Assembly (NCBI RefSeq): GCF_003334355.1
Contig: NZ_QOWP01000023.1
Strand: one strand, 5' to 3'
DNA: 64,000 nucleotides
Source: Escherichia coli
Lineage (GTDB): Bacteria; Pseudomonadota; Gammaproteobacteria; Enterobacterales; Enterobacteriaceae
The notes beneath the pieces are model-generated. The model searched no databases, had not been told where the DNA came from, and worked only from the letters and a program-made list of their open reading frames with translations. The stretch's first letter is position 1; every line of letters starts with the position of its first letter. The translations under genes were made by a program, and so were the position numbers. Below, in pieces: positions 34,060 through 36,445 of this stretch.

Positions 34060-35610
34060 ATGCCCACTTCTGATGAAAATGCACTGCAACAACGTTGCCA
34101 GCAAATTGTCACCAGCCCAGTGCTTAGCCCGGAGCAGAAGCGCCATTTTCTGGCACTTGAAGCAGAAAACAATCTGCCTTATCCGCAGCTGCCTGCCGAA
34201 GCCCGCCGTGCGCTGGATGAGGGTGTAATCTGCGATATGTTTGAAGGTCATGCGCCGTACAAACCGCGCTATGTCTTACCCGATTACGCCCGTTTTCTGG
34301 CGAACGGTTCCGAATGGCTGGAGCTGGAAGGCGCGAAAGATCTTGATGACGCACTCTCTCTGCTGACCATTCTTTACCACCACGTACCGTCGGTCACATC
34401 GATGCCGGTCTACCTGGGGCAACTGGATGCGTTGTTGCAACCGTATGTTAGAATTCTAACACAAGACGAGATCGATATTCGAATAAAACGTTTCTGGCGT
34501 TACCTCGACAGAACCCTGCCAGACGCCTTTATGCACGCCAATATCGGCCCGTCTGATTCGCCCATTACCCGTGCAATCTTACGTGCAGACGCAGAGTTGA
34601 AGCAGGTTTCACCGAACCTGACCTTTATCTACGATCCTGAAATCACCCCTGATGACCTACTGCTGGAAGTGGCGAAGAACATCTGTGAATGTAGCAAACC
34701 GCACATCGCCAACGGTCCGGTGCATGATAAAATTTTCACAAAAGGGGGCTACGGGATTGTGAGCTGTTACAACTCACTGCCGCTGGCGGGTGGTGGCAGC
34801 ACGCTGGTACGCCTTAACCTGAAAGCCATTGCCGAGCGCAGCGAATCGCTGGATGACTTCTTTACGCGCACTCTACCGCACTACTGCCAGCAGCAGATCG
34901 CCATCATTGATGCGCGGTGTGAATTCCTCTATCAACAATCACACTTCTTTGAGAATAGCTTCCTGGTGAAAGAAGGGCTGATTAACCCTGAACGTTTTGT
35001 GCCAATGTTTGGCATGTATGGGCTGGCGGAAGCGGTTAACTTGCTGTGTGAGAAAGAAGGGATTGCCGCGCGCTACGGTAAAGAAGCCGCCGCAAATGAA
35101 GTGGGTTATCGCATCAGCGCGCAACTGGCGGAGTTTGTCGCCAATACCCCCGTGAAATATGGCTGGCAAAAACGCGCCATGTTACACGCACAGTCGGGGA
35201 TCAGTTCCGATATCGGCACCACGCCGGGCGCGCGTTTACCCTATGGCGATGAGCCAGATCCGATCACCCATCTGCAAACTGTCGCCCCGCATCATGCTTA
35301 TTATTATTCCGGCATCAGCGACATTCTGACGCTCGACGAAACCATCAAACGTAATCCGCAGGCGCTGGTACAGCTTTGCCTCGGTGCCTTTAAAGCCGGA
35401 ATGCGTGAATTTACCGCCAATGTCAGCGGTAACGATCTGGTTCGCGTTACCGGTTATATGGTGCGTTTGTCGGATTTAGAAAAATATCGCGCCGAAGGTT
35501 CACGCACCAACACCACCTGGCTGGGCGAAGAAGCCGCACGCAACACTCGTATTCTGGAACGCCAGCCGCGCGTGATAAGCCATGAACAGCAGATGCGCTT
35601 TAGTCAGTAA
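34060..35610 (+). CDS. yjjI: Glycyl-radical-enzyme-like protein YjjI (DUF3029)
   Basis: 516 aa, [30 protein letters not shown]...; followed by its radical-SAM activase. Confidence 0.88.
34446..34461. promoter_or_regulatory. DeoR operator O1 (deoP1 region), embedded in the yjjI coding sequence
   Basis: Perfect 16-bp palindrome tgttagaattctaaca; centre-to-centre 599 bp from O2, matching the remembered deo O1-O2 spacing. Confidence 0.75.
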
Positions 35611-36445
35611 GATTATCCCCTTCTCCTGCGTTGACGGGCCAGGCAGTCGTCTGGCTCTGTTTTTGCAGGGCTGCAATCTGCGCTGCAAAAACTGTCACAA
35701 TCCGTGGACGATGGGGCGCTGTAATCATTGCGGAGAGTGCGTGCCACAGTGTCCGCATCAGGCGTTGCAGATTGTTGACGGCAAAGTGGTGTGGAACGCT
35801 GCGGTCTGCGAGCAGTGTGATACCTGCCTGAAGAGGTGTCCGCAACATGCCACGCCGATGGCGCAATCCATGAGCGTGGACGAAGTGCTTAGCCATGTCC
35901 GCAAAGCGGTGCTGTTTATTGAAGGGATAACGGTAAGCGGCGGCGAAGCCACGACCCAACTGCCGTTTGTAGTGGCGCTGTTTACTGCTATCAAAAACGA
36001 TCCGCAACTGCGCCATCTCACCTGTCTGGTGGACAGTAACGGCATGTTGAGCGAAACCGGCTGGGAAAAATTACTCCCGGTGTGTGACGGCGCAATGCTC
36101 GATCTCAAAGCATGGGGTAGCGAATGTCATCAACAATTAACCGGACGCGATAATCAGCAGATTAAGCGCAGCATCTGTTTGCTGGCAGAGCGCGGCAAGC
36201 TGGCGGAACTGCGTTTGCTGGTAATCCCTGGCCAGGTGGATTATTTGCAACACATCGAAGAACTGGCGGCGTTTATCAAGGGACTTGGCGATGTTCCGGT
36301 ACGCCTGAACGCGTTTCATGCCCACGGCGTGTATGGCGAGGCGCAAAGCTGGGCGAGCGCCACGCCGGAAGACGTTGAGCCGTTGGCTGATGCATTAAAG
36401 GTGCGCGGGGGGGGCCGGTTGATATTTCCGGCGCTGTATTTGTGA
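35582..36445 (+). CDS. yjjW: Glycyl-radical enzyme activating protein (radical SAM) YjjW
   Basis: 287 aa; Cys clusters ([12 protein letters not shown]; [13 protein letters not shown]...[12 protein letters not shown]); overlaps yjjI 3' end. Confidence 0.88.

Follow-up and report, generated by a model that had tools for sequence, protein, structure and literature searches.

Conserved yjjI-yjjW pair of Escherichia coli: a predicted glycyl radical enzyme and activase with a gene context suggestive of nucleoside catabolism

The window analyzed, a stretch of 64,000 nucleotides from an E. coli strain, carries on its plus strand the gene yjjI (34060..35610), coding for a predicted glycyl radical enzyme (GRE) of 516 amino acids from the YjjI family (PF11230/TIGR04040). 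It is followed on the same strand by yjjW (35582..36445), which codes for a radical-SAM glycyl-radical activase of 287 amino acids. As described in an earlier note on this DNA, the coordinates of the two open reading frames (ORFs) overlap by 29 bp at the 3′ end of yjjI and the 5′ end of yjjW (35582..35610, plus strand). Judged from the ORF list and the family profile, the ATG at 35582 is the only start available to yjjW that is not downstream of the conserved N-terminus. Furthermore, the overlap is also found in Salmonella, Hafnia, Proteus, Providencia and one betaproteobacterial-like contig, and likely reflects translational coupling. Upstream of yjjI are the divergent deoC-deoA-deoB-deoD genes, which agrees with the adjacency to the deo operon recorded previously, and downstream is the convergent yjjV. 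The RefSeq annotation of a 99.9% identical E. coli genome has the same two genes with the same ends, and the yjjIW locus is found in 5423 of 5426 complete E. coli genomes. The pair is a known, annotated E. coli locus. It had been called a conserved K-12 locus that is not new; the locus is indeed conserved and already annotated, but the strain is ~98% identical to K-12 at yjjIW and is not K-12.

YjjI matches the TIGR04040 model (‘YjjI family glycine radical enzyme’) with 788 bits (cut-off, 498) over positions 1–497 of the 497 in the profile and PF11230 with an E value of 2e-220 over positions 1–485 of 485. The family scores of YjjI and YjjW (see below) are far above chance. The AF2 model of YjjI (pLDDT, 91.6; pTM, 0.91) has the ten-stranded alpha/beta barrel common to GREs and ribonucleotide reductases (RNRs). 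The C-terminal glycine loop of the RVxG[FWY] type is present as the predicted glycyl-radical motif R462-V-T-G465-Y466 (35443..35457, plus strand), which DSSP of the model places at the tip of a beta-hairpin formed by strands 460–462 and 467–469. Another hairpin tip, between strands 231–234 and 238–241, carries the cysteine finger loop S235-C236-Y237-N238 (34762..34773, plus strand). The earlier note had proposed a structure prediction to see whether YjjI has a glycyl-radical loop and an active-site cysteine, and both are present. C236 is the predicted thiyl-radical cysteine. It is invariant in an alignment of 26 sequences (down to 30% identity), in which S235 and N238 are at least 90% conserved and R462, G465, G83, G120, D123, L174, E305 and G418 are also invariant. 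C236 is also the only conserved cysteine, C58 being replaced by H, D or Y in other members; neither a second conserved cysteine nor a Cys-Cys pair or Cys-x-Glu motif is present. The absence of these features places YjjI outside all the characterized mechanistic subclasses of GREs.

Old annotations describe YjjI as a ‘pflB homologue’ and some UniProt names as ‘PFL-like’, a label also given to HI0521, which would make it a short pyruvate/2-ketoacid formate-lyase. Consistent with this name, the YjjI profile aligns with PFL around the cysteine and glycine loops (E 3e-4), matching RVTGY to the IRVSGY motif (Gly734) and S235-C236 to C418-C419. However, the C418-C419 pair that PFL needs for its acyl-enzyme mechanism is Ser-Cys in YjjI. 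Furthermore, E. coli YjjI has no PF02901/PF01228 match, is some 250 residues shorter than PFL (516 versus 759 amino acids in PflB), and coexists in E. coli with PflB, TdcE, PflD and YbiW. A formate-lyase activity is, on this evidence, scarcely credible. Searches of the PDB with the single YjjI sequence returned only noise (E about 1), and those with the YjjI profile gave weak but correctly placed matches to PFL, YbiW and NrdD.

PflD and YbiW carry the title ‘probable dehydratase’ in the PDB (8yjo, 8yjn and 8id0, the last with bound 1,5-anhydromannitol-6-phosphate). These are proteins of 765–810 amino acids from the PFL family (PF02901/PF01228), in contrast to YjjI, which is 516 amino acids long, is classed in a Pfam family of its own and has C236-Y-N in place of their Cys-x-Glu arrangement. 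The same difference separates YjjI from the 1,2-eliminases (glycerol/propanediol dehydratase, CutC, HypD and IslA), whose general-base glutamate two residues after the cysteine corresponds to Asn238. The 1,2-eliminases also belong to a different Pfam family, and no microcompartment genes accompany yjjIW. YjjI has an invariant glutamate elsewhere (E305), although its placement in the pocket is a guess, as are the active-site roles of E305, R70, K213, R251, H376 and R392.

YjjW matches the TIGR04041 model (‘YjjW family activase’) with 397 bits (cut-off, 250) and has the Pfam domains Radical_SAM (PF04055), Fer4_12 and 4Fe-4S dicluster. The cysteine positions and the Radical_SAM/Fer4_12 matches locate the radical-SAM [4Fe-4S] motif at C31-x3-C35-x2-C38 (35672..35695, plus strand), and the translation also reads an N-terminal DGPG motif (VDGPG) and the SAM-binding SGGE. 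Residues 47–86 (35720..35839, plus strand) contain two CX2CX2CX3CP motifs in a ferredoxin-like insert predicted to hold two auxiliary [4Fe-4S] clusters. Neither PflA nor NrdG has such an insert. The activases of 1,2-eliminases have two auxiliary ferredoxin-type clusters. The comparison of loci covered 39 dereplicated ones (YjjI less than 75% identical to each other, 9-kb range); the genome scan matched only close relatives, and the distant loci came from a metagenome scan that used a distant YjjI member as its anchor. An activase gene adjoins yjjI in 35 of the 39 loci. Of the 36 activase-cluster proteins longer than 200 amino acids, 26 have the ferredoxin-like insert and 10 do not; the NrdG proteins of loci L148 and L162 account for two of the 10. 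The family models, the predicted fold and the glycine and cysteine loops bear out the earlier description of a GRE-like protein with a radical-SAM activase, and we regard YjjI-YjjW as very probably a GRE and its activase.

YjjI could also be a cryptic additional anaerobic ribonucleotide (or ribonucleoside) reductase, carrying out an RNR-type reduction to deoxyribose compounds. S235-C236 does align with the Cys-Cys of the class III enzyme NrdD, but only weakly (hhalign to a single NrdD, probability 9%), and we dropped the transfer of active-site residues from NrdD for this reason. Identity between the two proteins is 13–18%, and the NrdD models do not match YjjI with significance (Pfam NRDD, E 0.61; no NCBIfam NrdD hit). 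YjjI also lacks the second catalytic cysteine of class III RNRs, C58 being variable, and the C-terminal zinc-binding cysteine cluster (its last cysteine is C440), and a protein of its length leaves no room for an ATP cone. Furthermore, L148 and L162 each have genes for a genuine NrdD-NrdG pair in addition to YjjI-YjjW. E. coli nrdD mutants are not known to grow in strict anaerobiosis, so YjjI would be no substitute for NrdD. The E. coli strain devoid of all RNRs was grown aerobically and, therefore, says nothing about an O2-sensitive, FNR-dependent YjjI. On balance, a reductase is very unlikely. Because YjjI has one conserved cysteine, a redox-neutral radical elimination or cleavage is expected instead of an RNR-type reduction. 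The missing second cysteine is the sole ground for elimination-type chemistry, and the C-x-E of known eliminases is absent too; we consider this chemistry possible but less likely than not.

Searches of 7.7 million open-access papers and bioRxiv to mid-2026 (subscription-only papers being outside this scope) returned no substrate assignment for YjjI, no functional study of YjjI or YjjW, and no report of an EPR glycyl radical or O2-dependent chain cleavage at the glycine. Nor did the PDB sequence search or the names of AFDB relatives point to a substrate, so the earlier statement that the reaction is unassigned holds. Given the dehydratase-labelled structures of PflD and YbiW, YjjI-YjjW appears to be the E. 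coli GRE still without a reaction, and assigning one would take an entry off the E. coli ‘y-ome’.

Anaerobic, FNR-dependent expression of the pair has been shown by others. Published data report that anaerobic induction depends on FNR, that expression under anaerobiosis is about 10-fold higher for yjjI and about 3.6-fold higher for yjjW, and that FNR gives a ChIP peak between yjjI and deoC. A study of the HU regulon lists both among the FNR-activated genes, and Yersinia intermedia also expresses them at higher levels under anaerobic growth. Our consensus scan upstream of yjjI found no good full FNR palindrome (the best had three mismatches). The candidate site CGCATCAGGATCAA (33986..33999, plus strand) has its center some 41.5 bp before the start of transcription, which is predicted to be near 34033, and only the promoter-proximal half of the site, GGATCAA (33993–33999), is invariant across 11 genera. 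We infer that CGCATCAGGATCAA is the site behind the published FNR peak. The putative −10 hexamer of the yjjI promoter, TACAAT (34021..34026, plus strand), has T, A, A and T invariant across the same number of genera.

Co-expression with narGHJI has been used to propose a role for YjjI in nitrate/nitrite (nitrogen) metabolism. A conserved E. coli/Salmonella bicluster groups yjjI with nar genes sharing FNR- and NarL-like motifs, and a transcriptome study grouped it with respiratory genes. We rejected the 2011 proposal of ‘nitrogen assimilation’ as a mechanism because its basis is FNR co-expression only. Shared FNR control alone explains the co-expression, and no nitrogen-oxide genes recur beside yjjIW in the 39 loci. 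To our knowledge, no GRE acts on inorganic nitrogen compounds. Hence, we view a role in nitrogen metabolism as highly improbable.

Gene neighborhoods in other bacteria point instead to nucleosides. Unbiased clustering of the neighbors in the 39 loci ranked an ABC ATPase, a PnrA/Bmp substrate-binding protein (confirmed as PF02608) and permeases right after YjjW. The yjjIW pair is in or beside a PnrA/Bmp-type nucleoside ABC transporter operon in 11 of the 39 loci (28%), although the loci are related by descent and the counts overstate their independence. These 11 loci have the Bmp gene alongside yjjIW, most of them with the full transporter, in co-directional arrangements of at least five gene orders; two loci have yjjIW between the binding-protein and ATPase genes. 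Furthermore, the 11 loci come from different parts of the YjjI tree. The transporter operons also carry udp, cdd, deoC, deoB, rih, psuK/psuG or deoD. For example, L160 has the order udp-bmp-yjjIW-ABC-cdd-deoC-deoB, and other partners are rihC-like, pfkB kinase and deoD genes (L094), an adenosine-type deaminase and udp (L124), or psuK-like and psuG genes (L112). Gilliamella has cdd-deoA-ushA-yjjIW. This tie of yjjIW to neighborhoods of nucleoside transport and catabolism is a new contextual result. A network study from 2009 had independently put YjjI in a module of ‘nucleotide transport / deoxyribonucleoside degradation’. The adjacency to deo in E. coli looks functional because yjjIW sits with nucleoside transporter operons elsewhere; this suggests that it is not incidental. 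The partner enzymes vary by locus (purine, pyrimidine or pseudouridine) and, thus, imply only something common to nucleosides and no specific compound. Other genes near yjjIW were identified as unrelated: a conserved second neighbor pair in L118 and L168 is ruvA-ruvB, and large upstream genes in L137, L146 and L119 are ftsK, carB and addA.

About 60% of the dereplicated loci have no nucleoside genes within 9 kb, including those of Proteus, Providencia, the Vibrionaceae, an archaeal contig and L176–L178, and many are bare two-gene units. This would fit a substrate unrelated to nucleosides, some other small anaerobic metabolite, with the nucleoside neighbors reflecting only shared operon ancestry or co-regulation. 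The FNR promoter that yjjIW has of its own in E. coli is consistent with such a scenario, as are the other neighbors seen (MFS plus GDPD, alpha/beta hydrolase, sulfatase and M20 amidohydrolases). However, the only recurrent neighbor families from the unbiased clustering are nucleoside transport and catabolism genes, and their linkage persists through the various gene orders. Two deep branches each show it with partners of their own, the Bmp transporter in one and deo/cdd/ushA in the other. By a rough estimate that was not computed, chance would put a Bmp transporter within 9 kb of a random gene in about 1% of cases, against the 28% observed. An unrelated substrate is, then, possible but rather doubtful. 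A nucleoside- or pentose-related substrate is a serious prospect, to which we give slightly less than even confidence.

As the overall best explanation, we propose that YjjI-YjjW is an anaerobic, FNR-driven GRE with a dedicated activase, which acts as a lyase or dehydratase on a nucleoside-derived pentose; we judge this reading to be evenly poised between right and wrong. The fold, loops, activase motifs and neighborhoods behind it come from in silico analyses, and radical formation, reaction type and substrate are what we infer. YjjW, with its radical-SAM [4Fe-4S] cluster and two ferredoxin-type clusters, would reductively cleave S-adenosylmethionine, and the resulting 5′-deoxyadenosyl radical would take a hydrogen from Gly465 of YjjI. 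The stable glycyl radical could then transiently oxidize Cys236 on the opposing finger loop to a thiyl radical, which would take a hydrogen atom from the substrate. This substrate may be the sugar part of imported nucleosides or a direct derivative, such as a ribose or deoxyribose phosphate, or the nucleoside itself. YjjI would thus operate in anaerobic nucleoside catabolism, beside the deo enzymes. If the nucleoside link is true, gut bacteria would have an oxygen-independent radical step in nucleoside use. More speculatively, YjjI might represent a fourth, mechanistically distinct GRE branch, with a minimal barrel of the RNR type and a single cysteine, that acts on the nucleoside pentose by radical chemistry. 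One such reaction could be the dehydration of a ribosyl compound to a keto-deoxy pentose feeding the DeoC route. A branch of this kind would mean that E. coli and many gut anaerobes break down nucleosides with an anaerobic step not recognized before, and would be an extant form intermediate between ribonucleotide reductases and eliminase-type GREs.

In the Enterobacteriaceae, deoCABD and yjjI are interleaved through DeoR operators. The perfect palindrome of operator O1 (deo P1), TGTTAGAATTCTAACA (34446..34461), is inside codons 129–134 of yjjI. O2 (deo P2), TGTTAGTATTCTAACA (33847..33862), is in the deoC-yjjI intergenic region, 599 bp from O1, which is the published P1-P2 spacing of deo. In 20 enterobacterial loci, Hafnia among them, O1 is conserved at position +386 of yjjI with 0–1 mismatches, whereas yjjI lacks it wherever deo is not adjacent. 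Against the nucleoside link, the deo genes of E. coli are divergent from yjjI, not co-transcribed with it, and controlled by DeoR, CytR and CRP rather than FNR. The operator layout predicts DeoR looping over the yjjI promoter, and this prediction, together with a short and concrete list of substrates, makes the question directly testable. The CRP site of deoP2 (33880..33895) reads TGTGATGTATATCGAA on the minus strand, identical to the CRP ChIP-seq motif given for yjjI/deoC (PMC4287617).

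The two open reading frames (ORFs), yjjI (34060–35610; 516 aa) and yjjW (35582–36445; 287 aa), lie on the + strand and, in the ORF listing of the window, have 29 bp in common, as the earlier note had described. The YjjI ORF matched the NCBIfam model TIGR04040 ('YjjI family glycine radical enzyme') over its full length with 788 bits (cut-off, 498) and Pfam PF11230 with an E value of 2e-220. The YjjW ORF scored 397 bits (cut-off, 250) against TIGR04041 ('YjjW family glycine radical enzyme activase') and carries Pfam Radical_SAM and 4Fe-4S dicluster domains, so the matches uphold the reading of the pair as a glycyl radical enzyme (GRE)-like protein and its radical-SAM activase. 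The pair, named yjjI and yjjW in RefSeq, is present in 5423 of 5426 complete E. coli genomes (3.1-kb query, ≥80% coverage) and, in a 99.9% identical genome, sits beside the deo operon, as claimed, with deoC-deoA-deoB-deoD divergent and yjjV convergent. The ORF, family-model, genome-survey and neighbor results agree and thus confirm the earlier observation in its details; of its 'conserved K-12 locus', the conservation stands but not K-12 itself, the window being ~98% identical to K-12 at the locus. Because the locus, the family names and the orphan status are on record, the finding itself is already known. The analysis adds a confident predicted fold with the radical residues mapped, the exclusion of three characterized mechanistic subclasses and a reasonably strong multi-lineage link of yjjIW to nucleoside uptake and catabolism. 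This makes an old, small question, the reaction of YjjI, testable, in a way that will not surprise specialists.

The YjjI family is small (542 relatives at E ≤1e-3 among 1.84 billion cluster representatives, many of them fragments). The top AFDB50 match (A0A077ZDX6), attributed to 'Trichuris trichiura', has 875 aa, shares 100% identity with E. coli YjjI and includes Fer4_12/Radical_SAM domains; it almost certainly stems from bacterial DNA that contaminated the whipworm assembly and was called as a fused YjjI-YjjW. An alignment of 26 sequences, with identities as low as 30%, left G83, G120, D123, L174, C236, E305, G418, R462 and G465 invariant, and S235, N238, G244, G245, R251, H376, Q378, G380, D384 and R392 are among the nearly invariant residues. 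C236 (in V-S-C-Y-N) is the sole conserved cysteine, since several members have H, D or Y in place of C58; G465 lies in R-V-T-G-Y, 51 residues before the C-terminus. The AlphaFold2 model built from this alignment (pLDDT 91.6, pTM 0.91) places both motifs at the tips of beta-hairpins (strands 231–234/238–241 and 460–462/467–469), and the family profile aligns S235-C236 with C418-C419 of pyruvate formate-lyase (PFL) and RVTGY with PFL RVSGY at Gly734. Structure prediction had been proposed in the earlier note as a way to look for a glycyl-radical loop and an active-site cysteine; the outcome was positive because both are present. Basic residues at the strand ends of the model that are invariant or nearly so (R70, K213, R251, H376, R392) would suit an anionic substrate, which we offer as a suggestion.

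The fold comparison ranked class III ribonucleotide reductases (RNRs) first (31.4, 28.9 and 28.2), followed by E. coli PflD (28.2), a group scoring 25–27 (IslA, CutC, HPAD, propanediol dehydratase, PFL, HypD and YbiW) and class I/II RNRs (18–22). Foldseek agreed with this comparison. YjjI is not a class III RNR (NrdD), because the NCBIfam and Pfam NrdD models had no match to it, it conserves one cysteine, the E. coli protein has no cysteine after residue 440 and therefore no C-terminal zinc site, and two metagenomic loci carry a true NrdD-NrdG besides YjjI-YjjW. That YjjI is a cryptic reductase is, likewise, highly unlikely. PFL has a Cys-Cys pair where YjjI has Ser-Cys, which rejects the PFL type; a short PFL is most unlikely. 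The eliminase type was also rejected, as eliminases have Cys-x-Glu but YjjI has Cys-Tyr-Asn. Judged by these residues, YjjI is a GRE superfamily member outside all characterized mechanistic subclasses.

The translated YjjW contains an N-terminal VDGPG, C31-x3-C35-x2-C38, SGGE and two CX2CX2CX3CP motifs (residues 47–57 and 76–86). Its best non-family NCBIfam matches are the activases of HypD, sulfopropanediol dehydratase, indoleacetate decarboxylase, CutC and HPAD. We have little doubt that yjjI-yjjW encodes a functional GRE and activase. YjjI-associated activases fall into two types. The longer (~280–300 aa), to which E. coli YjjW belongs, has two ferredoxin-type CX2CX2CX3C motifs, which the shorter (~238–270 aa) lacks. 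The observation concerns the yjjI-adjacent activases of eight loci (L083, L092, L112, L118, L145, L148, L162 and L168); gain or loss of auxiliary clusters inside one enzyme family is unusual.

Loci with YjjI relatives, 169 in all, came from a genome scan, from exact-protein look-ups and from a metagenome scan that used a distant member as its anchor; dereplication at 75% YjjI identity reduced them to 39 with at least five ORFs. Clustering of the neighboring ORFs without prior annotation recovered YjjW (35 loci), ABC ATPases (17, generic ones included), a 350-aa binding protein (11), permeases (9), the PNP/Udp family (4), Rih nucleoside hydrolases (4) and PfkB kinases (3). The binding protein belongs to Pfam PF02608 ('PnrA-like/Bmp'), which we take to be the part of nucleoside ABC importers that binds the substrate. 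Bmp-type transporter genes are co-directional with yjjIW in 11 of the 39 loci, in at least five gene orders, and in L112 and L160 yjjIW lies between the binding-protein and ATPase genes. The accompanying enzymes are, by their predicted families, nucleoside-catabolic. For example, L160 reads udp-bmp-yjjI-yjjW-ABC-cdd-deoC-deoB; L094 has a RihC-like hydrolase, an ADP-ribosylglycohydrolase-like gene, a ribokinase-family kinase and deoD upstream and the Bmp transporter downstream; L124 has a class II RNR upstream, ~1 kb from yjjI, and an MtaD/DadD-type deaminase and udp downstream; L112 has a PsuK-like kinase and PsuG; and L091 has a Rih fragment and a PfkB kinase. Gilliamella carries cdd-deoA-ushA-yjjI-yjjW. 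Contigs L148 (1–2425) and L162 (2–1733) hold nrdD-nrdG, a Bmp nucleoside ABC transporter and yjjI-yjjW inside 11 kb, with a DNA-repair gene in between (nth in L148, nfo in L162); RNR genes may be an additional recurrent neighbor.

The partner enzymes of yjjIW cover purines, pyrimidines and pseudouridine alike, and the product they share is therefore the pentose (phosphate). These neighborhoods make pentose (phosphate) the likeliest substrate class, an assignment we hold tentatively. Transporter-linked loci are intermixed with unlinked ones over the non-proteobacterial part of the YjjI tree, and about 60% of the 39 loci have no nucleoside genes nearby, including those of Proteus, Providencia, Vibrionaceae, an archaeal contig and loci L176–L178. 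A YjjI substrate unrelated to nucleosides is, on balance, rather unlikely, and a role in nitrogen metabolism extremely so. With only one cysteine conserved, YjjI is more likely to carry out redox-neutral radical chemistry, either elimination or cleavage, which is possible, if doubtful.

In E. coli, the link to deo extends to the DNA itself. One DeoR operator palindrome, TGTTAGTATTCTAACA, lies in the deoC-yjjI intergenic region (33847–33862), and a second, perfect one, TGTTAGAATTCTAACA, lies inside yjjI (34446–34461), where codons 129–134 read Y-V-R-I-L-T. Their spacing, exactly 599 bp, is the published deoP1-deoP2 distance, across which DeoR looping locks both promoters (PMC3334521). From these positions, deoP1 would transcribe antisense across the yjjI promoter and the initial 386 nt of the gene, and the DeoR loop would take in that promoter. 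The analysis also draws attention again to a deo operator set within the yjjI frame; the physical overlap yields a concrete regulatory prediction. Twenty enterobacterial loci, Hafnia among them, keep the intragenic operator at the same position with 0–1 mismatches, and every one has deoC adjoining. Proteus, Providencia, Gilliamella, Vibrionaceae and a betaproteobacterial-like contig lack it and have V-G-E-L-T as the peptide there. The regulatory site seems to have molded the YjjI protein sequence. A weaker candidate third operator, TGATAAAATTTTCACA (34726–34741), has four mismatches. The mechanical deoC ORF (33023–33826; 267 aa) begins with TTG at 33826; RefSeq deoC in a near-identical genome (780 bp, 259 aa; MTDLKASS...) corresponds to a start at 33802.

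The pair is made under anaerobiosis. An FNR ChIP-seq peak lies in the yjjI/deoC intergenic region, and yjjI, classed as directly FNR-activated, has an aerobic/anaerobic expression ratio of 0.098, against 0.27 for yjjW (PMC3688515). Both genes were entered as FNR-activated in an HU-regulon study (PMC2634741), and in Yersinia intermedia anaerobic growth raised yjjI 4.3-fold and yjjW 2.1-fold (PMC3792023). Upstream of yjjI, an alignment of 11 enterobacterial genera contains an invariant GGATCAA (33993–33999), ~21 unconserved bases and a conserved TACAAT/TACACT (34021–34026). If transcription starts, as predicted, ~7 nt past this hexamer, the 14-mer holding the GGATCAA half-site (33986–33999, + strand) would be centered near -41.5, the classical class II FNR position. 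With K-12 coordinates anchored on the window via a published sigma-54 motif (PMC4591121), the FNR peak center falls at ~33960–33967, between this candidate and a second intergenic FNR/CRP-like site (33938–33951), and favors neither. The deoP2 CRP site TGTGATGTATATCGAA (33880–33895, - strand) has the motif of a CRP ChIP site (PMC4287617), and the stretch 33880–33957 also holds a conserved TTTGCAT...ATAATG block. The intergenic region is densely packed, these elements being only ~30 bp from those of the yjjI promoter.

CTGGCTCTGTTTTTGCA (35651–35667), which lies in sense orientation within the 5' end of yjjW, is identical to the motif of a strong intragenic K-12 sigma-54 ChIP peak, IS57 (PMC4591121). 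A terminator-like hairpin with a T-run (35636–35657) overlaps it, and either might play a part in yjjW being induced less strongly than yjjI under anaerobiosis. Between the convergent yjjW and yjjV, about five tandem 101-bp units (36449–36953) are 92–95% identical. A fifth, truncated unit scores below the gathering score of Rfam RF02564 (naRNA4, a REP-derived nucleoid-associated RNA), which the other four exceed on the minus strand. The copy number of the array seems to depend on the strain, as the 3.1-kb query is less fully covered by K-12-like genomes.
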